Below are positions 1 through 15,043 of a stretch of 29,138 nucleotides of DNA, piece after piece; within the stretch, counting starts at the first letter, position 1; the number at the start of each line of letters is the position of its first letter. Source of the stretch: an uncultured Fibrobacteraceae bacterium (GTDB lineage Bacteria > Krumholzibacteriota > Krumholzibacteriia > LZORAL124-64-63). The stretch is from the NCBI GenBank assembly GCA_964384055.1, contig CAYLIV010000045.1:1-29138 (forward strand). Direction: 5' to 3'. The notes under the pieces are model-generated. The model ran no database searches. It was given only the letters and a program-made list of their open reading frames with translations, and was not told the origin of the DNA. Both the position numbers and the translations under genes were made by a program.

Positions 1-212
1 AGGGGCTACCATCTTTGGCACCTTCTTCACAAACATGTGGAGGAGGTGCTTTCTTTTTGCAGTAGGGGATGCATTGACCTGTTCCCATCCCGAATCAAAC
101 AACGCCGGGCGGTGTGAAGGGGAAAGCCTGCGTGAGTTGAAATCTGGTCCAGTCGGAAGTTGGTGAATCTGTCAGGTTGAACCAGGATCTCCTTCTTCAC
201 CAACACGGCAAC

Positions 213-1895
213 TCAGGAACGAGACGGCCCGGATTGATCCTCTGGAATGTTATCAAAGTTTCTGAGTACCCGCTCGATGATTGTATCCGCCGCTGCAGCT
301 TCTGCGGCGACAACATGGGTGGCGCCAGCTTTCTCCAGGCGCTTCACATCGGTTTCGTAGGTGGTTCGCACGGTGATCCGCAGATCGGGTGCCGCAAGTC
401 GCGCGGCTCCAGTTACCCGAGCCGTTGCGTCCGGATCGTTGATAGCGACCACGAGTTCGCTGGCATCGGCAACCCCGAGATGCTCGAGCACCTCTGCGCT
501 CGTAACGTCTCCGAAGCAAGCCGGCTCTCCCCGCCGAGCCGCCTCCCGAACATTCTCGCTGTTGAGATCGACGATAATGTACCGCGCACCTATCTGTGTG
601 AGAGAGCGGGCCAGACCCCTGCCCGTCAAGCCATACCCGGCGATGATGACGTGGTCCCTCAATGACTCGGATTTCTGTATCTCCGCTATGGTTTGCACCT
701 GGAGCAGACGCGTCAAGTGGTTGAGCTTTCCCAATCCAGCCGCCAGGTGGGGCCCCAGCGCGAGCCCAAATGGCGTGGCCAGCATCGAAAGGATGATTGC
801 CACAGTGAGATTGCCCCGAAGAGGTTCTTCCAGCAGGCCTGTTCCGCTCGCCGCTAGAAGGAGGACAAAGGCGAACTCTCCGACCTGGGACAAAGAAGTG
901 GCGGTTAGGATTCCCACACGCGCCGGAAGCCTCATGATGGAAGCGGCAAGGAAAATGATGATGAACTTACCAACGATGATGGCGCCGAATAGTCCGAGAA
1001 TGGGGAGCAGGTTATCGAGCACGTTCCCGAGATCGAGCAGCATGCCGATAGAGACGAAGAACACACTGGCGAGAACATCGCGCAACGGGACAAGATCGGA
1101 GATCGCCTGCTCGCGATACCGGCTACCGGAAACGACCAAGCCGGCGAGAAACGCGCCGAGGGCCAGCGAGACGCCCGCGGTTGATACCACCCAGGCGGTC
1201 CCGAGGCAGATCAGAAAGACGGAAAGTACGAAGAGATCGCGCTCCCGCGTGCGTGCAATTGCTTCGAGAAAACGAGGCACGACCAATCGCGACGCCACCA
1301 GTACGCCAGTGATCACTGCTGCAGCCTTCAGTAGCAGGACCAGCACGCTCGTACCAGCGCTGGCGGTGTCACAAAGGACAGGAATGAGTAGGACCATCGG
1401 TACGACACAGAGGTCCTGAAAGATCAGAATGCCAAGTGCCAGCCGACCGTGCGGCGTCTCGAGTTCTCCCCGGGTCGACAGGCCCCTCAGGACAATGGCA
1501 GTGCTCGATACGGCGATAATGAAACCCAGCAACAGTCCCGATCGAATGTCTCGCCCGAACAGATCATTGAGCCATAACACGATCAGGATAGTGGTGCCTA
1601 CCTGGACGGCGCCTCCTACGGCGATCGGTCTCCAGAGCCGGCGGACCCGGTTCAAGGAGAGCTCGAGTCCAATGCCGAAGAGGAGCAGCACAACGCCAAG
1701 TTCGGCGAGAGTTTCGACCTGGTGGATATCCTGAACAAGTCCCAGCGCGTTGGGCCCGATAACTGTTCCGGCGACGATGAACCCCGCGATAGACGGCACT
1801 CCCAAGCGGCGTAGAAACGCAACTACGGCAACAGCTGCCGCGAGAATTATAACCAGGTCCAAGAGGAAGACTAGCTCAGTCACAGCCGTTCCCAT
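213..1895 (-). CDS. Monovalent cation:proton antiporter-2 (CPA2) family, KefB/KefC-like, with C-terminal RCK/TrkA-N NAD-binding domain (copy 1)
   Basis: The 560-aa ORF starts at an ATG. About twelve hydrophobic helices show the Na+/H+-exchanger pattern (GPNALGLV, LLFGIGLE). They are followed by a Rossmann motif, IIAGYGLTGRGLARSL…IVDLN, typical of RCK domains. Confidence 0.85.
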   Translation of the reverse strand: MGTAVTELVFLLDLVIILAAAVAVVAFLRRLGVPSIAGFIVAGTVIGPNALGLVQDIHQVETLAELGVVLLLFGIGLELSLNRVRRLWRPIAVGGAVQVGTTILIVLWLNDLFGRDIRSGLLLGFIIAVSSTAIVLRGLSTRGELETPHGRLALGILIFQDLCVVPMVLLIPVLCDTASAGTSVLVLLLKAAAVITGVLVASRLVVPRFLEAIARTRERDLFVLSVFLICLGTAWVVSTAGVSLALGAFLAGLVVSGSRYREQAISDLVPLRDVLASVFFVSIGMLLDLGNVLDNLLPILGLFGAIIVGKFIIIFLAASIMRLPARVGILTATSLSQVGEFAFVLLLAASGTGLLEEPLRGNLTVAIILSMLATPFGLALGPHLAAGLGKLNHLTRLLQVQTIAEIQKSESLRDHVIIAGYGLTGRGLARSLTQIGARYIIVDLNSENVREAARRGEPACFGDVTSAEVLEHLGVADASELVVAINDPDATARVTGAARLAAPDLRITVRTTYETDVKRLEKAGATHVVAAEAAAADTIIERVLRNFDNIPEDQSGPSRS

Positions 1896-2269
1896 CCGAT
1901 AAACCCCGGAGTTTTACCAAGCGGAATTCAGCCAGTTTGTTGAATCCGCCGCCGCCGACCTTAACATCGCAGAACGGCCCGGTATACAGATTATAGCCAG
2001 TCAAAACCGGCTGACCACAGAGTACTTATCCTCTGAGCTGGCACAACTTTCATTACTCCAGATTAACAGGGCCAGGCCGCGAGCATGTGTGAAAGATCTT
2101 CGATTCTTGCCTGCTCCCACTTCATGGCGTCTGCTGACTACCATCTCGAATGCCTCCCTCACCGATGGTTGGGGGAGGCAATTCTGTGTGCGAAGCGAAC
2201 CGATCAGCACTCATGGCCGATCTGGCATGGTCGCGTCGAGGAAAGGCACCCTCCCGGCGCGAAGCCAGG

Positions 2270-2965
2270 TCAAGGTGACGATCCCGGCGAACCGACAGGA
2301 ATCACGAACCGCAAGACACAGAAAAAATGTAGAGTTGTGCCTGCCAGCACGAACAGATGCCAGACGGCGTGATGGTAAGGGAATCCACGCCAGATGTAGA
2401 AGATAGCGCCGGCACTGTAAGCCGCGCCACCCATTCCCAGCCAGATCAGAGCCTGCATCGGGAGTGCCGCGGCAAGTGGTCGAAAGGCGATGGCCACGAG
2501 CCAGCCGAGGGCGAGGTAGAAAACGAGGGACAACCTTTTCCAGGGACGGCGCCAGACGACCTCGTAGACTATTCCCAGGGCCGCCAGCCCCCATCCCAGG
2601 CCGATGAGGGTCCAACCCCAGCCACCGCCCAGCACGATCAGGGCGAACGGCGTGTAGGTGCCGGCGATGAGCAGGTAGATGGCGCCATAATCCAGCAACT
2701 CGAAGACGAACTTGGCGCGGGCCGCGGTGAGGGCGTGATAGAGGGTCGAGGCAGCGTACAGGGTCAGTATGGACCCGCCGAAAATGGTGACGCCCACCAC
2801 GGTCTGCGCATCGCCTGACGCCGCAGCACGCCAAACAAGAATCACCAGGCCCACCGCGCCACCGAGTGTTCCGAGGCCGTGGGTGATCGCATGGGCGATC
2901 TCCTCGCCGCGTGAGAAACGATCATGCTCAAAGGTGCCACGCAACGGGACTCTCTCCTGATCCAT
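2270..2965 (-). CDS. Hemolysin-III / PAQR (YqfA) family membrane protein (copy 1)
   Basis: The 231-aa ORF starts at an ATG and has seven predicted TM helices. Family motifs are present: EEIAHAITHGLG, TLYHA, LLDYGAIYLLIAGTYTPF and YHHAVWHLFV. Confidence 0.85.
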   Translation of the reverse strand: MDQERVPLRGTFEHDRFSRGEEIAHAITHGLGTLGGAVGLVILVWRAAASGDAQTVVGVTIFGGSILTLYAASTLYHALTAARAKFVFELLDYGAIYLLIAGTYTPFALIVLGGGWGWTLIGLGWGLAALGIVYEVVWRRPWKRLSLVFYLALGWLVAIAFRPLAAALPMQALIWLGMGGAAYSAGAIFYIWRGFPYHHAVWHLFVLAGTTLHFFCVLRFVIPVGSPGSSP

Positions 2966-3012
2966 GGTGACAGGGCCGGTTGGCTCTGGGGCCGCCCCAG
3001 TGCAGGTCTAGC

Positions 3013-3048
3013 AGAAAAAAGCCCCGATCTCCAGAGAAGACCGGGGCC
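3013..3048 (-). terminator. Intrinsic terminator downstream of the RRM gene (copy 1)
   Basis: A 6-bp GC stem (gccccg/cggggc) with a 15-nt loop is followed on the minus strand by U6 (plus-strand A6 at 3015..3020). A second small hairpin, gcgcc-ttccg-ggcgc, lies at 3071..3085. Confidence 0.5.
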
Positions 3049-3098
3049 GTGAGGAAAATCGGGATTCACCGCGCCTTCCGGGCGCCGTGATCAGGTGC

Positions 3099-3368
3099 TT
3101 ACCACCTCGAGCCGCCGCGAGGCTCACGCGGGCGCGCCTCGTTGACGTTGAGAGCTCGACCGTCGACTTCCCGGCCATTGATCGCCTGGATGGCCTGCAT
3201 GGCTTCGTTGTCGTTCTCCATCTCCACGAATCCGAATCCCCGCGAGCGGCCGGAATCGCGATCGGTGACGACCGTGGCGCTGTTGACGGCGCCATGCTCT
3301 GCAAACAGGGAATTGAGGTCGGGGTCGGACGTGTCGAAGCTGAGGTTGCCCACATAGATCTTCTTCAA
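3099..3368 (-). CDS. RRM-type (RNP-1/RNP-2) RNA-binding protein with Arg/Gly tail (copy 1); TTG start
   Basis: The 89-aa ORF carries RNP-2 (KIYVGNLSF) and RNP-1 (RGFGFVEM). The start codon is TTG, since the plus strand reads caa at 3366..3368. A Shine-Dalgarno AGGAAG lies 7 nt upstream. The only alternative start is an internal GTG. Confidence 0.8.
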   Translation of the reverse strand: MKKIYVGNLSFDTSDPDLNSLFAEHGAVNSATVVTDRDSGRSRGFGFVEMENDNEAMQAIQAINGREVDGRALNVNEARPREPRGGSRW

Positions 3369-3437
3369 GACTGCACTTCCTTCGGAACTCGGAATCCGCC
3401 GTCATTAACAGATATCGGTTCAACTCGACGGATCTAC

Positions 3438-3462
3438 AAAAAAAGCCGGCAGGGTTGCCGAC
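3438..3462 (-). terminator. Terminator-like hairpin plus U7 inside the RRM upstream leader (copy 1); candidate attenuator or 3' end of an upstream small RNA
   Basis: Minus strand: gucggca-accc-ugccggc followed by uuuuuuu (plus-strand A7 at 3438..3444). The stem is better on the minus strand (G·U) than on the plus strand (C/A mismatch). It lies about 75 nt upstream of the RRM TTG start. Confidence 0.45.
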
Positions 3463-3976
3463 CGGGCGCAATATAGGTGGATTCGGGGGAAACACAAGGT
3501 ATTTCTCCGATCATCGGTTCCCTGCCAATGGTCCCGGTACCGGATGCACCTCGCTGTCTGATCACTGTTATAGTACTACGGCGAGTGCCCCGGCTCGCGG
3601 CCTCGGGAGTGCTCCAGCCGCGGTCTGGGAGGTGGCAGCCCAGGATTCAAATCTTGTGGCTCGAGAGGTGCGGCGGAGGATCGTCCAGACAGGAGTATAT
3701 CAATTCCGGGACGGAAAACCACTTCCGACGGAGCACTCCGGGAGAGGTTCGCATACTGTCCCATACGGGCTACCATCTTTGGCACCTTCTTCACAAACAT
3801 GTGGAGGAGGTGCTTTCTTTTTGCAGTAGGGGATGCATTGACCTGTTCCCATCCCGAATCAAACAACGCCGGGCGGTGTGAAGGGGAAAGCCTGCGTGAG
3901 TTGAAATCTGGTCCAGTCGGAAGTTGGTGAATCTGTCAGGTTGAACCAGGATCTCCTTCTTCACCAACACGGCAAC

Positions 3977-5659
3977 TCAGGAACGAGACGGCCCGGATTG
4001 ATCCTCTGGAATGTTATCAAAGTTTCTGAGTACCCGCTCGATGATTGTATCCGCCGCTGCAGCTTCTGCGGCGACAACATGGGTGGCGCCAGCTTTCTCC
4101 AGGCGCTTCACATCGGTTTCGTAGGTGGTTCGCACGGTGATCCGCAGATCGGGTGCCGCAAGTCGCGCGGCTCCAGTTACCCGAGCCGTTGCGTCCGGAT
4201 CGTTGATAGCGACCACGAGTTCGCTGGCATCGGCAACCCCGAGATGCTCGAGCACCTCTGCGCTCGTAACGTCTCCGAAGCAAGCCGGCTCTCCCCGCCG
4301 AGCCGCCTCCCGAACATTCTCGCTGTTGAGATCGACGATAATGTACCGCGCACCTATCTGTGTGAGAGAGCGGGCCAGACCCCTGCCCGTCAAGCCATAC
4401 CCGGCGATGATGACGTGGTCCCTCAATGACTCGGATTTCTGTATCTCCGCTATGGTTTGCACCTGGAGCAGACGCGTCAAGTGGTTGAGCTTTCCCAATC
4501 CAGCCGCCAGGTGGGGCCCCAGCGCGAGCCCAAATGGCGTGGCCAGCATCGAAAGGATGATTGCCACAGTGAGATTGCCCCGAAGAGGTTCTTCCAGCAG
4601 GCCTGTTCCGCTCGCCGCTAGAAGGAGGACAAAGGCGAACTCTCCGACCTGGGACAAAGAAGTGGCGGTTAGGATTCCCACACGCGCCGGAAGCCTCATG
4701 ATGGAAGCGGCAAGGAAAATGATGATGAACTTACCAACGATGATGGCGCCGAATAGTCCGAGAATGGGGAGCAGGTTATCGAGCACGTTCCCGAGATCGA
4801 GCAGCATGCCGATAGAGACGAAGAACACACTGGCGAGAACATCGCGCAACGGGACAAGATCGGAGATCGCCTGCTCGCGATACCGGCTACCGGAAACGAC
4901 CAAGCCGGCGAGAAACGCGCCGAGGGCCAGCGAGACGCCCGCGGTTGATACCACCCAGGCGGTCCCGAGGCAGATCAGAAAGACGGAAAGTACGAAGAGA
5001 TCGCGCTCCCGCGTGCGTGCAATTGCTTCGAGAAAACGAGGCACGACCAATCGCGACGCCACCAGTACGCCAGTGATCACTGCTGCAGCCTTCAGTAGCA
5101 GGACCAGCACGCTCGTACCAGCGCTGGCGGTGTCACAAAGGACAGGAATGAGTAGGACCATCGGTACGACACAGAGGTCCTGAAAGATCAGAATGCCAAG
5201 TGCCAGCCGACCGTGCGGCGTCTCGAGTTCTCCCCGGGTCGACAGGCCCCTCAGGACAATGGCAGTGCTCGATACGGCGATAATGAAACCCAGCAACAGT
5301 CCCGATCGAATGTCTCGCCCGAACAGATCATTGAGCCATAACACGATCAGGATAGTGGTGCCTACCTGGACGGCGCCTCCTACGGCGATCGGTCTCCAGA
5401 GCCGGCGGACCCGGTTCAAGGAGAGCTCGAGTCCAATGCCGAAGAGGAGCAGCACAACGCCAAGTTCGGCGAGAGTTTCGACCTGGTGGATATCCTGAAC
5501 AAGTCCCAGCGCGTTGGGCCCGATAACTGTTCCGGCGACGATGAACCCCGCGATAGACGGCACTCCCAAGCGGCGTAGAAACGCAACTACGGCAACAGCT
5601 GCCGCGAGAATTATAACCAGGTCCAAGAGGAAGACTAGCTCAGTCACAGCCGTTCCCAT
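3977..5659 (-). CDS. KefB/KefC-like CPA2 antiporter with RCK domain (copy 2, identical translation)
   Basis: Identical 560-aa translation, offset +3,764. Confidence 0.85.
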   Translation of the reverse strand: MGTAVTELVFLLDLVIILAAAVAVVAFLRRLGVPSIAGFIVAGTVIGPNALGLVQDIHQVETLAELGVVLLLFGIGLELSLNRVRRLWRPIAVGGAVQVGTTILIVLWLNDLFGRDIRSGLLLGFIIAVSSTAIVLRGLSTRGELETPHGRLALGILIFQDLCVVPMVLLIPVLCDTASAGTSVLVLLLKAAAVITGVLVASRLVVPRFLEAIARTRERDLFVLSVFLICLGTAWVVSTAGVSLALGAFLAGLVVSGSRYREQAISDLVPLRDVLASVFFVSIGMLLDLGNVLDNLLPILGLFGAIIVGKFIIIFLAASIMRLPARVGILTATSLSQVGEFAFVLLLAASGTGLLEEPLRGNLTVAIILSMLATPFGLALGPHLAAGLGKLNHLTRLLQVQTIAEIQKSESLRDHVIIAGYGLTGRGLARSLTQIGARYIIVDLNSENVREAARRGEPACFGDVTSAEVLEHLGVADASELVVAINDPDATARVTGAARLAAPDLRITVRTTYETDVKRLEKAGATHVVAAEAAAADTIIERVLRNFDNIPEDQSGPSRS

Positions 5660-6033
5660 CCGATAAACCCCGGAGTTTTACCAAGCGGAATTCAGCCAGT
5701 TTGTTGAATCCGCCGCCGCCGACCTTAACATCGCAGAACGGCCCGGTATACAGATTATAGCCAGTCAAAACCGGCTGACCACAGAGTACTTATCCTCTGA
5801 GCTGGCACAACTTTCATTACTCCAGATTAACAGGGCCAGGCCGCGAGCATGTGTGAAAGATCTTCGATTCTTGCCTGCTCCCACTTCATGGCGTCTGCTG
5901 ACTACCATCTCGAATGCCTCCCTCACCGATGGTTGGGGGAGGCAATTCTGTGTGCGAAGCGAACCGATCAGCACTCATGGCCGATCTGGCATGGTCGCGT
6001 CGAGGAAAGGCACCCTCCCGGCGCGAAGCCAGG

Positions 6034-6729
6034 TCAAGGTGACGATCCCGGCGAACCGACAGGAATCACGAACCGCAAGACACAGAAAAAATGTAGAGTT
6101 GTGCCTGCCAGCACGAACAGATGCCAGACGGCGTGATGGTAAGGGAATCCACGCCAGATGTAGAAGATAGCGCCGGCACTGTAAGCCGCGCCACCCATTC
6201 CCAGCCAGATCAGAGCCTGCATCGGGAGTGCCGCGGCAAGTGGTCGAAAGGCGATGGCCACGAGCCAGCCGAGGGCGAGGTAGAAAACGAGGGACAACCT
6301 TTTCCAGGGACGGCGCCAGACGACCTCGTAGACTATTCCCAGGGCCGCCAGCCCCCATCCCAGGCCGATGAGGGTCCAACCCCAGCCACCGCCCAGCACG
6401 ATCAGGGCGAACGGCGTGTAGGTGCCGGCGATGAGCAGGTAGATGGCGCCATAATCCAGCAACTCGAAGACGAACTTGGCGCGGGCCGCGGTGAGGGCGT
6501 GATAGAGGGTCGAGGCAGCGTACAGGGTCAGTATGGACCCGCCGAAAATGGTGACGCCCACCACGGTCTGCGCATCGCCTGACGCCGCAGCACGCCAAAC
6601 AAGAATCACCAGGCCCACCGCGCCACCGAGTGTTCCGAGGCCGTGGGTGATCGCATGGGCGATCTCCTCGCCGCGTGAGAAACGATCATGCTCAAAGGTG
6701 CCACGCAACGGGACTCTCTCCTGATCCAT
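6034..6729 (-). CDS. Hemolysin-III / PAQR family membrane protein (copy 2)
   Basis: Identical 231-aa translation, offset +3,764. Confidence 0.85.
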   Translation of the reverse strand: MDQERVPLRGTFEHDRFSRGEEIAHAITHGLGTLGGAVGLVILVWRAAASGDAQTVVGVTIFGGSILTLYAASTLYHALTAARAKFVFELLDYGAIYLLIAGTYTPFALIVLGGGWGWTLIGLGWGLAALGIVYEVVWRRPWKRLSLVFYLALGWLVAIAFRPLAAALPMQALIWLGMGGAAYSAGAIFYIWRGFPYHHAVWHLFVLAGTTLHFFCVLRFVIPVGSPGSSP

Positions 6730-6776
6730 GGTGACAGGGCCGGTTGGCTCTGGGGCCGCCCCAGTGCAGGTCTAGC

Positions 6777-6812
6777 AGAAAAAAGCCCCGATCTCCAGAG
6801 AAGACCGGGGCC
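6777..6812 (-). terminator. Intrinsic terminator downstream of RRM gene (copy 2)
   Basis: Same sequence as 3013..3048. Confidence 0.5.
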
Positions 6813-6862
6813 GTGAGGAAAATCGGGATTCACCGCGCCTTCCGGGCGCCGTGATCAGGTGC

Positions 6863-7132
6863 TTACCACCTCGAGCCGCCGCGAGGCTCACGCGGGCGCG
6901 CCTCGTTGACGTTGAGAGCTCGACCGTCGACTTCCCGGCCATTGATCGCCTGGATGGCCTGCATGGCTTCGTTGTCGTTCTCCATCTCCACGAATCCGAA
7001 TCCCCGCGAGCGGCCGGAATCGCGATCGGTGACGACCGTGGCGCTGTTGACGGCGCCATGCTCTGCAAACAGGGAATTGAGGTCGGGGTCGGACGTGTCG
7101 AAGCTGAGGTTGCCCACATAGATCTTCTTCAA
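6863..7132 (-). CDS. RRM-type RNA-binding protein (copy 2); TTG start
   Basis: Identical 89-aa translation, offset +3,764. This copy keeps the native upstream region, which continues into unique sequence at 7540. Confidence 0.8.
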   Translation of the reverse strand: MKKIYVGNLSFDTSDPDLNSLFAEHGAVNSATVVTDRDSGRSRGFGFVEMENDNEAMQAIQAINGREVDGRALNVNEARPREPRGGSRW

Positions 7133-7201
7133 GACTGCACTTCCTTCGGAACTCGGAATCCGCCGTCATTAACAGATATCGGTTCAACTCGACGGATCTA
7201 C

Positions 7202-7226
7202 AAAAAAAGCCGGCAGGGTTGCCGAC
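7202..7226 (-). terminator. Terminator-like hairpin plus U7 in RRM leader (copy 2)
   Basis: Same sequence as 3438..3462. Confidence 0.45.
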
Positions 7227-7712
7227 CGGGCGCAATATAGGTGGATTCGGGGGAAACACAAGGTATTTCTCCGATCATCGGTTCCCTGCCAATGGTCCCG
7301 GTACCGGATGCACCTCGCTGTCTGATCACTGTTATAGTACTACGGCGAGTGCCCCGGCTCGCGGCCTCGGGAGTGCTCCAGCCGCGGTCTGGGAGGTGGC
7401 AGCCCAGGATTCAAATCTTGTGGCTCGAGAGGTGCGGCGGAGGATCGTCCAGACAGGAGTATATCAATTCCGGGACGGAAAACCACTTCCGACGGAGCAC
7501 TCCGGGAGAGGTTCGCATACTGTCCCATACGGGCTACCAGTTTCCTGAGTACGGCTTCCCCCAGCGGAGGGAGGCCGTCTCTGTTTCAAGACAGAAATCA
7601 CCGCAGCCACAACCGACTCTTGCGCACCGGGCCGATTTGTCTATTCTTCCCTCGATCGGAATCATCCAGATGGCCGCTGCCGGCCACGCTCCAATCTCGG
7701 AAAGGCAACGCC

Positions 7713-8234
7713 ATGAGTGAACGACCGGAAATCACGCCCGACCTGATGGTCGGACAGTTCCTGGACGCGTATCCCGAGCTGGAATCCGAGCTCATTGCGA
7801 TCGCGCCGCCTTTCGAGAAACTGAGCAATCCGGTCCTGAGGCAGACGTTGGCCAAGATCACCTCCCTGCGCCAGGCCGCCCAGGTGGGGGGCGTCTCGCT
7901 CGGTGCGATGATCGGTCGCCTGCGCCAGGCTGCCGGCATCGAAGACGAATGGTCCGGTGACGAAGGCAGCGATACCGCCAGGCCCGAATGGCTCGACCGG
8001 GTCGAAGTGGTCGACGTCGATGACGCGCGCGCCGAGATCGAGCGAGGTGAACATCCCTTACCCAGGGTGATGGACGCGCTGAAGAACCTGCAACCGGGCC
8101 AGGCCCAGGTGCTGATCACGCCGTTCATGCCGGGACCCTTGCTGGACAAGGTCAGGGAACAGGGATTCACCGTCTGGAGCCAAGCGGTCGGCGAAGAGGA
8201 ATTCCACAATACCTTCGCCCGGCTGGATCCTTGA
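7713..8234 (+). CDS. DUF1858-like (hybrid-cluster-protein-associated redox-disulfide) N-domain fused to a DUF2249-like C-domain; function unknown
   Basis: The in-frame ATG at 7713 follows GGAAAGG and gives 173 aa starting MSERPEITPDLMVGQFLDAYPEL. The N-terminal half resembles DUF1858 (ITPDMTI.E.L..YPE). The C-terminal half, VVDVD…PLPRVMDALKNLQPGQ.LVL…P.PLL..L, resembles DUF2249. The longer ORF from 7620 runs into the RRM upstream region and is unlikely to be coding. Confidence 0.55.
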   Translation: MSERPEITPDLMVGQFLDAYPELESELIAIAPPFEKLSNPVLRQTLAKITSLRQAAQVGGVSLGAMIGRLRQAAGIEDEWSGDEGSDTARPEWLDRVEVVDVDDARAEIERGEHPLPRVMDALKNLQPGQAQVLITPFMPGPLLDKVREQGFTVWSQAVGEEEFHNTFARLDP

Positions 8235-9648: not shown

Positions 9649-10683
9649 ATGAATATTTCGCGCGGCAATCTCGTGTCCACCGTTGTCGGCGTCGCCCTGT
9701 TGCTCGTCGGCGTCATCGTGACCGTCCTGTTCACGACCGACTCCGCCCAGGCCAAGGAAGTGACCAAGGATTTCGCAGAGACCTTCGACGTGCGGCCGGG
9801 CATGACCCTGAAACTCGACCACGGCGACGGTGACGTGTCGATCGAGCCGGCGGACAACGACGTGCTCGACATCACCGTCCGCTATCGCGTCGAACACGCC
9901 CGCATCGGCGTGGGGGACAAGGCCAATCTCGACGTGAAATTTGATCGCGACGACGATGTCATCCGGGTCGTCGGCAAGGAGAAGGGCGGATTTGTCATCG
10001 GCTTCTCGCACTTCAAGCGCTACGAATATACCTATACCATCACCGCGCCACCGTATCTGATACTCGAGCTCCGGGGCGAGGACGGCGACGTCAGTATCAG
10101 GCGTTGGACGGGTAACATCGCCTGTACTCTCGACGACGGCGACGTCACGCTGCACGATATCGAGGCCGAGATGACGACCCTCGAACTGGAGGACGGCGAT
10201 CTGCAGATAGAAGGTTTACGCGGCGAACTCGACGTGCAGGCTGACGACGGCGATCTCGATCTCTTAGAACTCGTGGTGGACAACTGCAATATCGATCTGG
10301 CCGACGGGGAGATTCAGATCGATCGCAGCGAGGGCGTTTTCGATCTCGAGACCGAGGACGGCAACATCGAAATCCGCCGTACGCAGGCCACACGCCTCAC
10401 CGCACTCGCCGAGGACGGGGATATCGAACTCGACCTGGAAGGTGACGGGCCCATCGATCTGGACCTGGAGAGCGAAGATGGCGACATCGACGTCGATCTC
10501 GCCGCGAACCTGTCGGCCGACTTCAGTATCGAAACCAGCGATGGACGTATCCGCCTGCACTTGCCCGACGAGGCGGTCGACGTCGACCGTAAACGCCGTG
10601 CCTCAGGCCAGCTCGGCGACGGCGGCGGACGCATCCGCATCCAGACCGACGACGGCAACGTCACCCTACGCAGCGGCCGCTGA
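9649..10683 (+). CDS. DUF4097-family beta-strand-repeat protein (YvlB/LiaG-like putative adhesin); N-terminal TM anchor, Asp/Gly-rich repeats
   Basis: The ATG at 9649 follows AAGGAG. A TM helix, VVGVALLLVGVIVTVLF, is followed by at least 10 degenerate repeats of the form (E/D)DGD(V/I/L)x(I/L/V). Confidence 0.6.
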   Translation: MNISRGNLVSTVVGVALLLVGVIVTVLFTTDSAQAKEVTKDFAETFDVRPGMTLKLDHGDGDVSIEPADNDVLDITVRYRVEHARIGVGDKANLDVKFDRDDDVIRVVGKEKGGFVIGFSHFKRYEYTYTITAPPYLILELRGEDGDVSIRRWTGNIACTLDDGDVTLHDIEAEMTTLELEDGDLQIEGLRGELDVQADDGDLDLLELVVDNCNIDLADGEIQIDRSEGVFDLETEDGNIEIRRTQATRLTALAEDGDIELDLEGDGPIDLDLESEDGDIDVDLAANLSADFSIETSDGRIRLHLPDEAVDVDRKRRASGQLGDGGGRIRIQTDDGNVTLRSGR

Positions 10684-10700
10684 TCGTTCGGCTGCGGTGT

Positions 10701-10786
10701 CGCCGTTCTGAAACCGAAGCAGTCACCGCGCGGACTCGAGCCGAAGGCGAATGGAGCACGGTGACTGCTTCGGTTTCAGAACGGCG
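10701..10786. repeat. 28-bp perfect inverted repeat (arms 10701..10728 and 10759..10786) with a 30-nt spacer; it sits between convergent genes and is a putative bidirectional terminator or structured element
   Basis: CGCCGTTCTGAAACCGAAGCAGTCACCG and its exact reverse complement, read directly from the sequence. The spacer contains CTCGAG. Confidence 0.7.
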
Positions 10787-10804
10787 AGAAGCCAGCGAGA
10801 ACGT

Positions 10805-11698
10805 TCACGGCCGCAGCCCCTCGAGGTAGAACACCTCGAAGACCTTTTCGTGGAAGATCGGTCCGTGCCCGAAGTAGCCCTCCTCGCCGAACAGCTCTCC
10901 GTGGTCGGACATGATCATGAAGTAGGTATTCTTGGGGCAGCGTTCCATGAAGGTGCCCACGACCTTGTCCAGGTGCTCCACGCAAACGATCTGCTTCTCG
11001 TAGAAGGCCTTGAACTGCTCGGGAGTGAAGAACTCTTCTTCCTTGCGGTCCTCGATGAACTCGCCCGGATTCTTCAGGAATTCGTCGAGGGATTTGAACA
11101 CGCCGTGCACGCCGCTGATGTGGGGCAGGTCGTCGGCTTTCTCACCGGGCAGCAGGTAGGGATAGTGGGTTTCGCCGGTATTGATGAAGAAGAAACTCGG
11201 CTGGTCCTTCTTGAACTCGAGCTGATCGCAGATGGCCTGCAGGTCGTTGTGCGAGGGGGCCAGTTCGTACTTGTCGAAATGGGCCGAGAGGCTGGTCATG
11301 GGATTGAGTACGGGCAGGCTGACCCAGCCTTCGTTGTAGTAACCCTGGGCCTTGAGGAAGTGCGGCAGCGAGAGCTGCGGCACGAACTTGCTGAACTCCA
11401 CTTCCGGGATGTTCAGGCGCTCGGACCAGAGCGAGAACTCCTCGCGATACACGTTGGAGGCGAAAACGCCTTTCGGGCTCGTATGGGGGACCATTCCCAT
11501 CAGGAAGGTATAATGGCTCGGGCTGGTCCAGCTGGCGTAGCTGTAGCGCTGCTCGGCCGCACCGATCCGATCCAGATTGGGAGTATTGGCCTCCATGTAC
11601 GCGTCGTACCGGCAACTATCGAAAACGATGAACACGATGTTGTTCAGCGTGTCCCCACCGCCGAAAACCTTCTTCACGCCATCGAGAAATCCCGCCAT
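10805..11698 (-). CDS. Type-I phosphodiesterase / nucleotide pyrophosphatase (NPP)-like alkaline-phosphatase-superfamily protein, cytoplasmic
   Basis: 297 aa; the ATG follows AAGGA. FDSCRYDAY resembles the NPP FDGFRWDY motif. TSPSHYTFLMGMVPHTS resembles the TFPNHYSIVTGLYPESHG nucleophile region. MIMSDHGE is also present. The residues are rich in F/K/E/Y and GC looks lower than in neighbouring genes. Confidence 0.6.
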   Translation of the reverse strand: MAGFLDGVKKVFGGGDTLNNIVFIVFDSCRYDAYMEANTPNLDRIGAAEQRYSYASWTSPSHYTFLMGMVPHTSPKGVFASNVYREEFSLWSERLNIPEVEFSKFVPQLSLPHFLKAQGYYNEGWVSLPVLNPMTSLSAHFDKYELAPSHNDLQAICDQLEFKKDQPSFFFINTGETHYPYLLPGEKADDLPHISGVHGVFKSLDEFLKNPGEFIEDRKEEEFFTPEQFKAFYEKQIVCVEHLDKVVGTFMERCPKNTYFMIMSDHGELFGEEGYFGHGPIFHEKVFEVFYLEGLRP

Positions 11699-11832
11699 GG
11701 TTGTCCTTCGGTTCTGGATTGTACTAGGTAGTCATTGCTAACAAGGTGGTAGTTGGCCGCGATTTCGGCAAGGGCTGGAACACGCGATACGAAGCGGTAG
11801 CCGCGAAGCCGGCAGCCGCTCTCGAAGAACAC

Positions 11833-14176: not shown

Positions 14177-15043
14177 CTATTGATACAGCGTACCGGTGTT
14201 GACCACCGGCTGAGCCGCGTGTTCACTGCACAGCACCACGAGCAGATTACTGACCATCGTGGCCTTCTTTTCCTCGTCGAGCTCGACGAGCTCCTTGGCG
14301 TTCAGCTCTTCCAGCGCCATCTCGACCATGCCCACCGCGCCCTCGACGATCTTCTTCCGGGCGGCGACCACGGCGCTGGCCTGCTGCCGCTGCAGCATGG
14401 CGCCGGCGATCTCCGGCGCGTAGGCCAGGTGGCTGATCCGCGCCTCGATGACGGTCACACCGGCCTGGTTCAGACGCTCCTGCAGTTCCCGCTGCAGGTG
14501 AGCATTAATCTCATCGGTGGCGCCGCGCAACGTCAGGCTGTCTTCGGGGCCGTCGTACGGGTAGGAGCTGGCCAGGTGTCGTACGGCAGACTCGCTCTGG
14601 GTTGTGACGTAGTCCTCGTAGTCGTCGACCTCGAACAGCGCCATGGCGGAATCCCGCACCTTCCAGACCACGACAACCGCGATCTCGACGGGATTACCCG
14701 TCAGATCGTTCACCTTGAGGCGCTCGCTGTTGAAGTTGCGTGCTCGGAGCGAGACCTTCATCTTCGTCAGGAAAGGATTGGCGTAACGGAATCCGTTCTG
14801 CGTGCTCGTACCCTTGTAAGCACCGAACAACAACAGGGCAGCCGCCTCGTTGGGATTGATGATGAAGAATCCGGCAGAGAGGAATATGTTCACCACCAGC
14901 AGGATGCTCATGGTGATGATCTGACCAGGGATCTCGGCGGCGATACCGGCGATGAGCAGGTAGATGAACACGGCGTACAGGCAGATGTTGATGAACAGTA
15001 TCGCCCAACCGGACGCGGAATTGAAAGTCTTGTCGGCGTGCAT
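14177..15043 (-). CDS. SPFH / band-7 (stomatin/HflC-like) membrane protein
   Basis: 288 aa with two N-terminal TM helices followed by an SPFH core (…[23 protein letters not shown]…, a coiled-coil tail). The ATG follows GGAGG. The same strand continues 43 bp downstream into the RHH gene. Confidence 0.75.

Follow-up and report, generated by a model that had tools for sequence, protein, structure and literature searches.

Tandem duplications and amplifications made by unequal exchange between short direct repeats are well known in Salmonella and E. coli, and tandem amplifications can be selected for gene dosage. Classic genomic islands at tRNA genes are the work of tyrosine integrases, with a long identity between attP and attB that restores the tRNA. 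Tyrosine integrases are also used in the known cases of accretion of cis-mobilisable elements (CIMEs); these elements, and the model of accretion and mobilisation that goes with them, were reportedly described for the integrative and conjugative elements (ICEs) of Streptococcus thermophilus. In serine integrases, the motif for the zinc-ribbon domain is set 5 bp further from the centre in attP than in attB (Rutherford et al. 2013, PMC3783163). Here, we analyse a stretch of 29,138 nucleotides (nt) from an uncultured Fibrobacteraceae bacterium (contig CAYLIV010000045.1 of assembly GCA_964384055.1, positions 1 to 29,138), called the window hereafter, which begins with two head-to-tail copies of a unit of 3,764 bp, named X, carrying genes for a cation/proton antiporter, a hemolysin-III family (HlyIII) membrane protein and an RRM protein. 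We read X, with a probability of about 55%, as the remnant of the cargo of a large serine recombinase (LSR) element at a tRNA-Glu(CUC) gene, joined head-to-tail across the att core, and we prefer recombinase-mediated accretion as the way in which this happened.

The repeat and its single-copy parent

Positions 3..3775 of the window equal positions 3767..7539 at an offset of 3764, an identical run of 3,773 nt with 0 mismatches. Identity ends on the left at position 2, which is G against C at 3766, and on the right at 3776/7540. By self-comparison of the window, which contains no Ns, copy 1 of X occupies 3..3766 and copy 2 occupies 3767..7530. An earlier note, made by eye from this DNA, had described two identical head-to-tail copies and had left room for polymorphisms that it might have overlooked; the copies are as described, and not one polymorphism separates them over the 3,773 nt. 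Chance is far too small to account for a perfect repeat of 3.77 kb. The 9-mer GGGCTACCA occurs on the + strand of the window exactly three times, at 3, 3767 and 7531, as had been claimed, and 0 times on the - strand. A 9-mer repeat is by itself unremarkable, because maximal direct-repeat pairs of 9 nt or longer with a spacing of 500-10,000 nt number about 1,257 in the 22-kb single-copy locus, and 362 of these exceed 9 nt. The copies are identical and head-to-tail, and their join lies within a repeat that flanks the single-copy parent, which is the pattern of unequal exchange. The same note had attributed the duplication to unequal exchange at short direct repeats. The repeat-unit-repeat-unit-repeat anatomy on which it relied stands, but the repeat is not an anonymous one: it forms the 3' terminus of tRNA-Glu(CUC) and is, as we argue below, probably the att core of an LSR.

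The protein sequence of the antiporter is found, identical, in 16 public contigs (JGI, ENA, Logan), and seven of these loci (L001-L007) were displayed. X is single-copy in all seven; the note had proposed to look for the duplication, or its absence, in other subpopulations. The gene order of the single-copy state is Metalloenzyme, DUF1858, RRM, HlyIII, antiporter, tRNA-Glu, tRNA-Gln, a 684-aa holin/phosphodiesterase protein and GluRS, and wherever a displayed locus covers X from end to end, GGGCTACCA flanks it on either side. Three of the seven (L003, L005 and L007), each from another assembly, show 0 mismatches to copy 2 and its right flank over the overlap, in agreement with the recent origin that had been claimed for the duplication, and they belong with the window to one clonal population. 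The last 14.5 kb of the window are 100% identical to a 464-kb scaffold that extends past it. Look-ups of three open reading frames (ORFs) that span the junction gave no record, and hence no other contig with the joint. A degenerate pattern for the four boundary types, run against a metagenome contig collection, returned one unrelated 2-kb contig; this collection is without the JGI contigs (e.g. Ga0117909_1000004), which makes the result uninformative. No literature was found under the run, sample and contig accessions.

Putative recombination sites at the tRNA-Glu gene

In the single-copy loci L001-L005 and L007 a 76-nt tRNA-Glu(ctc) gene lies immediately left of what is position 1 of the window, and tRNA-Gln(ctg) precedes it. 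The 9-mer is the last 9 nt of this tRNA-Glu(CUC), i.e. the end of the acceptor stem, the discriminator base and CCA. Positions 1..11 (+ strand) read AGGGGCTACCA, the last 11 nt of the tRNA, and would form the B half of an attL truncated by the start of the window; ARAGORN finds no tRNA within the window. A third copy of X further upstream, for which the note had left room, was rejected since positions 1-2 (AG) fit the acceptor stem of tRNA-Glu or the flank seen in L006, not the end of the unit.

The opposite end of X carries what we take for the attR of a decayed element, a P arm followed by the core (GGTTCGCATACTGTCCCATACGGGCTACCA, 7510..7539, + strand). These 30 nt are 29/30 identical to the left half of the attP in L099, a contig from another LSR element (MAFFT alignment), and 28/30 identical to the element end in L006, with a similarity confined to about 30 nt. 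They also resemble the tRNA itself: the 18 nt ending at the X-right core match the tRNA end at 16/18 positions, and a similarity to the tRNA as high as this was reached by 6/3,000 random segments of the window. In a gapped alignment to the tRNA-Glu of a relative, GGTTCG of X-right pairs with the T-arm, with 5 extra nt in between, and the flank of the element in L006 aligns likewise to the tRNA of this organism (GGTTCG to the T-arm, 5 extra nt). The L099 attP consists of perfect 16-nt inverted arms on either side of an 18-nt centre, and its dyad is centred at G|T, which is C|T inside GGGCTACCA. The crossover dinucleotide is thus probably CT, and the first core copy with this dinucleotide lies at 3..11 (+ strand). 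Measured from this centre, GGTTCG is 14 nt away in the tRNA, that is, in the host site, and 19 nt away in X-right, L006 and L099; in L096, the contig of a relative described below, the mirrored CGAAC is likewise at 19 nt. The displacement of 5 bp between attB and attP is hence found at this site, where the motif position is read from the sequence and the domain assignment comes from PMC3783163. The two mismatches between the tRNA end and X-right fall left of the presumed crossover, as expected for B-derived against P-derived sequence. X is flanked, then, by attL and attR with a common short core and with a P-type arm at the distal end, the pattern of an LSR element remnant. Beyond attR, the chromosomal B' flank (7540..7578, + strand) is the same in all six displayed single-copy loci that extend so far (L001-L004, L006 and L007), and the hairpin at 7551..7578 may be the original terminator of tRNA-Glu. 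A tRNA island made by a tyrosine integrase was the candidate considered first; it was ruled out on the tRNA identity of 16/18 only and on the dyad symmetry and 5-bp shift, which fit an LSR.

Clues to the kind of element come from relatives in which the orthologue of the 684-aa protein is 64% identical. They keep the left-hand synteny and both tRNAs and diverge directly after tRNA-Glu. One of them (L097) has a terminator and efflux genes at this place. In L096, tRNA-Glu is followed by an LSR of 505 aa (Resolvase, Recombinase and Zn_ribbon_recom domains; 10268..11785), then by SpoVG, a D12 methylase and ParB_N, and this arrangement is an integrated element. Another relative, L101, has the same layout, with the LSR at 4084..5610, and in both the order is tRNA-Gln, tRNA-Glu, core, P' and the LSR of 505-508 aa. 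The family shares a C-terminal motif (…QKKHLLxxLVKKVLxxDRRT.EVWY.LP…) followed by a tail translated from the antisense strand of a tRNA 3' end; a tail of this kind, …VAPTGLEPVLPP, matches the tRNA-Glu of the present organism exactly. In the family as a whole (proteins P0121-P0240) the recombinase ORF crosses attL into the antisense strand of the target tRNA, and for this reason the C-terminal tail (…GLEP…) is encoded by the host and differs between the integrated and the attP form. Some members end in …MGQYAN or …QYAN, the antisense translation of the P arm GTTCGCATACTG; one of these, P0134, adjoins the attP of L099, which reads GGTTCGCATACTGTCC-CATACGGGGTACCAAATC-GGACAGTATGCGAACC. Clades of the family differ in their tail, each tail deriving from a different tRNA, and a conserved hairpin within the 3' coding region looks like a terminator serving the tRNA operon on the opposite strand. 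The rest of the L099 contig (1..15666 of ERZ24794647 NODE_19948) carries a Prim-Pol/PriCT primase and SpoVG on the recombinase side and, on the P-arm side, AbiEi/AbiEii, a DEAD/helicase protein of 1,349 aa and a SUKH_5 protein, apparently cargo of the defence type. A further relative's contig, L098 (Ga0070729_10025900), ends exactly at the final base of its tRNA-Glu (4233..4308), another sign of the variability of this site in natural populations.

The left end of X bears what seems to be a trace of such a recombinase. A search with residues 448-467 of the LSR (tblastn) points to the remnant of the 3' end of an LSR gene, 20 codons on the - strand at 19..78, repeated at 3783..3842 (…KRKHLLHMFVKKV…). 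Positions 20..59 are 85% identical over 40 nt to L096, and their minus strand encodes KRKHLLHMFVKKV, the C-terminal motif of the LSR; on the + strand, a terminator-like hairpin at 17..50 lies directly 3' of the tRNA. Compared with L096, L101 and L099 (MAFFT), X-left is without about 72 nt just after the core and keeps the conserved hairpin. The missing piece amounts to the P' half-site and the last ~24 codons of the LSR. Pfam searches for integrase pseudogenes on every ORF of the non-coding parts of X gave no matches. Because X-right is a P arm with the core and X-left an LSR remnant without P', X can be written as attL*(tRNA|ΔP')-cargo-attR(P|B'): to all appearance it is what is left of a decayed LSR element, with the antiporter, HlyIII and RRM genes as the surviving cargo, and the 9-bp repeat would be an att core duplicated by the old integration.

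Other features agree with an acquired origin. The GC content of X is 59.3%, against 63.1% in the rest of the window; the GC content at third codon positions (GC3) is 0.66 for the antiporter and 0.77-0.88 for the seven chromosomal genes that were measured outside X; and synteny in relatives breaks at tRNA-Glu. Homologues of the antiporter with 75-84% amino acid identity occur in metagenome-assembled genomes (MAGs) labelled Planctomycetota, Gemmatimonadota, Deltaproteobacteria, Acidobacteria and Fibrobacteraceae (loci L009-L017), a distribution that suggests either horizontal spread of the gene or unreliable MAG labels; for the chromosomal gene adjacent to X, a larger database offers no homologue of more than 64% identity. 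The antiporter homologues have no neighbours in common and lie in contexts unrelated to one another. None of those in L009-L017 has HlyIII, RRM or tRNA-Glu as neighbours, and a conserved synteny of the three genes was not found among them. By its GC content, synteny and the contexts of these homologues X looks acquired. Several of the homologues lie ~500 nt from the end of their contig.

The junction between the two copies has the composition expected of such a unit. At 3746..3775 (+ strand) the P arm GGTTCGCATACTGTCCCATAC and the core are followed by the left end of X, an attP-like joint truncated on its P' side; the stretch 3746..3790 as a whole consists of P arm, core and X-left, and the P' half-site is missing. 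An ORF on the minus strand (3576..3866) crosses it and reads …KHLLHMFVKKVPKMVARMGQYAN…, resembling the C-terminal tail of P0134 in its attP form.

The displayed locus L006 differs from the others. Its tRNA is replaced by unrelated, low-GC, ORF-free DNA ending in GGGTTCGCATACTGTCCCACAG, after which the same core and the left end of X follow. We call this inserted DNA element E. Two samples yielded the L006 contig, and there are two further places like it that were not displayed. L006 is a second, independent rearrangement joined at the same core. Its flank has no match among phage or plasmid records; in IMG/VR, a 30-mer of it has 0 matches and the 18-mer of the P arm has 2 chance matches. In a search for E by way of the neighbouring 684-aa protein, which lies on ten contigs, two places were displayed, both in the native state. 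LSR homologues whose tail matches the tRNA led to a contig of a different, though related, organism.

Origin of the tandem copy

Given these sites, the second copy could have been made as follows. A sibling LSR element, E, which part of the population carries between the tRNA and X, would supply the integrase and the directionality factor. Recombination between the attL of E and the attR of X would excise E+X as one circle, whose attP would be P_X-P'_E, and this circle might re-integrate in a chromosome that has kept its X, at the tRNA|X-left site. The product would be tRNA-E-X-X-flank. Excision of a circle of X alone would be a simpler variant. The route through E+X should need canonical LSR reactions only, and E has used the tRNA|X-left site, as L006 shows. 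It predicts the end of E, and not the tRNA, upstream of position 1 of the window; both read …AG.

Several observations weigh against this reading. The P' half-site (…ACAGTRTRCGAAC…) is missing from X-left, so that the recovery of both attP half-sites from attL and attR fails, and direct action of an LSR on X's own attL* is doubtful because the junction is without a P' half-site. According to PMC3783163, moreover, serine integrases normally do not recombine non-cognate pairs of sites. The ORFs of X and of the rest of the window include no LSR gene (Resolvase + Recombinase + Zn_ribbon_recom), and element E is known from 743 non-coding nt only, its LSR and directionality factor being postulated. 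The two-copy state occurs in this one assembly only, and L007, a Logan contig of run SRR8062321, crosses both boundaries of the unit in the single-copy state; the same run also gave contigs identical to the right-hand part of the window. The start of the contig looks like a branch point of the assembly graph, where the copy number is the assembler's inference and could stand for a fixed duplication, a minority array or a circle. Finally, any crossover within the 9-mer, enzymatic or not, gives the same junction, and the sequence alone therefore cannot name the mechanism.

The last two points open the way to different accounts. A tandem duplication at the end of a metagenome contig is untrustworthy without reads, and it is possible, though we hold it the weaker case, that each chromosome has one X and that the assembler threaded a loop once, using junction k-mers from rare X circles, a minority variant or chimeric reads. 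The flank with the tRNA (…CCCGT|AGGGG) and that of L006 (…CCCAC|AGGGG) part at the very base with which the window starts, and the junction path joins 2 nt later, a layout expected of a de Bruijn graph with a loop beside a branch. Every displayed public contig is single-copy, including the Logan contig that crosses both boundaries, and a circle and a tandem array give identical junctions. Yet CGGGCTACCAT is found in neither parental context, so real reads spanning the junction are needed for k of at least 21, and random chimeras are not expected to fall on an att core. Exchange without a recombinase, by slippage, template switching or short-homology recombination between the 9-bp or 16/18-bp repeats of sister chromosomes, would instead give a true chromosomal tandem duplication. 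It agrees with the repeat-unit-repeat anatomy, with a join exactly in the repeat and a single-copy parent that has the repeat at both ends, with the zero divergence from the single-copy loci of three overlapping assemblies, and with a junction that does not tell it from enzymatic exchange. We nonetheless find it unlikely. The pair used is the att pair, one out of the ~1,257 pairs of 9 nt or more (362 exceed 9 nt), and the second rearrangement of the population, L006, shares the same core; on both counts the choice of this pair by random microhomology is unlikely. Besides, 9 bp are very short for a 3.8-kb exchange at a frequency that can be assembled without strong selection, and no sign of selection was found.

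Selection is central to a further account, favoured by the earlier note, in which an extra copy of the antiporter, HlyIII and RRM genes was retained for its dosage under osmotic, pH or cold stress. Whole genes are indeed duplicated intact with their upstream regions. But all seven displayed loci of the same clonal population are single-copy, and the boundaries of the unit are set by att sites, not by genes; we found no support for dosage selection and consider it most improbable. The duplicated block would be the cargo of an old element, and where a 9-bp joint invited a story of stress-driven amplification, the evidence favours a more ordinary and better-defined origin. Cargo of an LSR element joined by accretion, the reading that we retain, has a bolder extension: X might be a non-autonomous cassette, without recombinase and with half an attP, that is mobilised and amplified in trans by the sibling LSR element through accretion at tRNA-Glu. 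This we regard as rather speculative. If true, remnants devoid of integrase could still spread their cargo through serine recombinases, and mobilisation by E would be an LSR-driven counterpart of the cis-mobilisation of CIMEs, caught in a natural population.

Gene content and comparison with known systems

The gene content that had been proposed for X is upheld by Pfam domains. On the - strand, each copy encodes a CPA2 cation/proton antiporter of 560 aa with a C-terminal TrkA_N (RCK/KTN) domain (213..1895 and 3977..5659; PF00999, 1.7e-61; PF02254, 3.9e-24), an HlyIII/PAQR family membrane protein of 231 aa (2270..2965 and 6034..6729; PF03006, 7.9e-36) and an RNA-binding protein of 89 aa with a single RRM (3099..3368 and 6863..7132; PF00076, RRM_1, 4.6e-21). 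The fusion of an Na_H_Exchanger membrane domain to a C-terminal TrkA_N/KTN domain is that of KefB/KefC-type CPA2 proteins, and KefB-like remains a putative label at the level of domains. The first gene beyond the unit encodes DUF1858 and DUF2249 (7713..8234, + strand; domain search).

Some further features of these genes and of their surroundings deserve mention. A terminator-like hairpin with a T-run (3444..3463 and 7208..7227, - strand) lies 76 nt upstream of the RRM start, on the same strand, within a non-coding leader of ~400 nt, and has no match to an Rfam family; it could be an attenuator in the RRM 5' untranslated region (UTR) or the end of a small RNA (sRNA). Rfam gave no match on the window at the gathering threshold and no convincing one at E ≤1 on 3000..4000, where matches below threshold, to sRNA and cis-regulatory families, are limited to 3011..3139, over a hairpin at 3020..3048. 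The HlyIII gene shares an exact 21-nt match with the Band_7 gene (2661..2681 and 14946..14966), both encoding IYLLIAG in a transmembrane segment; this is probably a coincidence of codon usage, though pure chance is unlikely. Between the DUF4097 and sulfatase genes, a hairpin-forming palindromic segment of 76 nt (~10699..10774, arms 10691-10731 and 10756-10796) is present in the window, L002 and L003 and exactly absent from L001, L004 and L006. It is an indel polymorphism inside an otherwise near-identical population.

How does this locus compare with the systems from which we started? It has several traits of LSR elements and prophages such as those with the LI/A118 integrase (Rutherford et al. 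2013, PMC3783163): a dyad-symmetric attP, in L099, with a short core around a central dinucleotide, a GGTTCG motif 5 bp nearer the centre in the host site, a recombinase gene at the very end of the element, and members of the same family at the same tRNA-Glu in the relatives L096 and L101. It differs in that the window holds a stump of 20 codons only, with one attP half-site deleted and the whole known here from sequence, and in that the recombinase ORF of this family crosses attL into the tRNA antisense. As a by-product, the comparison yields a matched set of attB, attP, attL and attR for an uncharacterised clade of tRNA-Glu-specific serine integrases. The likeness to tRNA genomic islands lies in the intact tRNA on one side and the partial tRNA-like repeat on the other, in the atypical GC and GC3 of the cargo and in the break of synteny, whereas the identity here is of 9 bp only (16/18) and the site is of the LSR type.

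With CIMEs the locus shares an att-flanked unit without a recombination module of its own, seemingly left by a decayed integrative element, and perhaps a related element in tandem at the same site (L006, E being known from 743 nt), whose co-excision and re-integration with X would explain the array. The recombinase is an LSR here and a tyrosine integrase there, and mobilisation is here a matter of deduction. As for the duplications of Salmonella and E. coli, the copies are likewise identical and head-to-tail, joined in the flanking repeat and heterogeneous in the population, but the repeat appears to be a site-specific recombination core rather than random microhomology, a REP or an IS, and the copy number comes from the assembly. 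The joint would then be a recombination core at a tRNA that is, in this uncultured lineage, a hotspot for integration by one LSR family. Hence, the kinds of biology involved are all already known, namely LSR elements, tRNA islands, accretion and tandem duplication, and what they combine into here is probably an att-flanked cargo cassette repeated head-to-tail at a tRNA-Glu hotspot, the repeat being made by, or at least at, the core of a serine recombinase.

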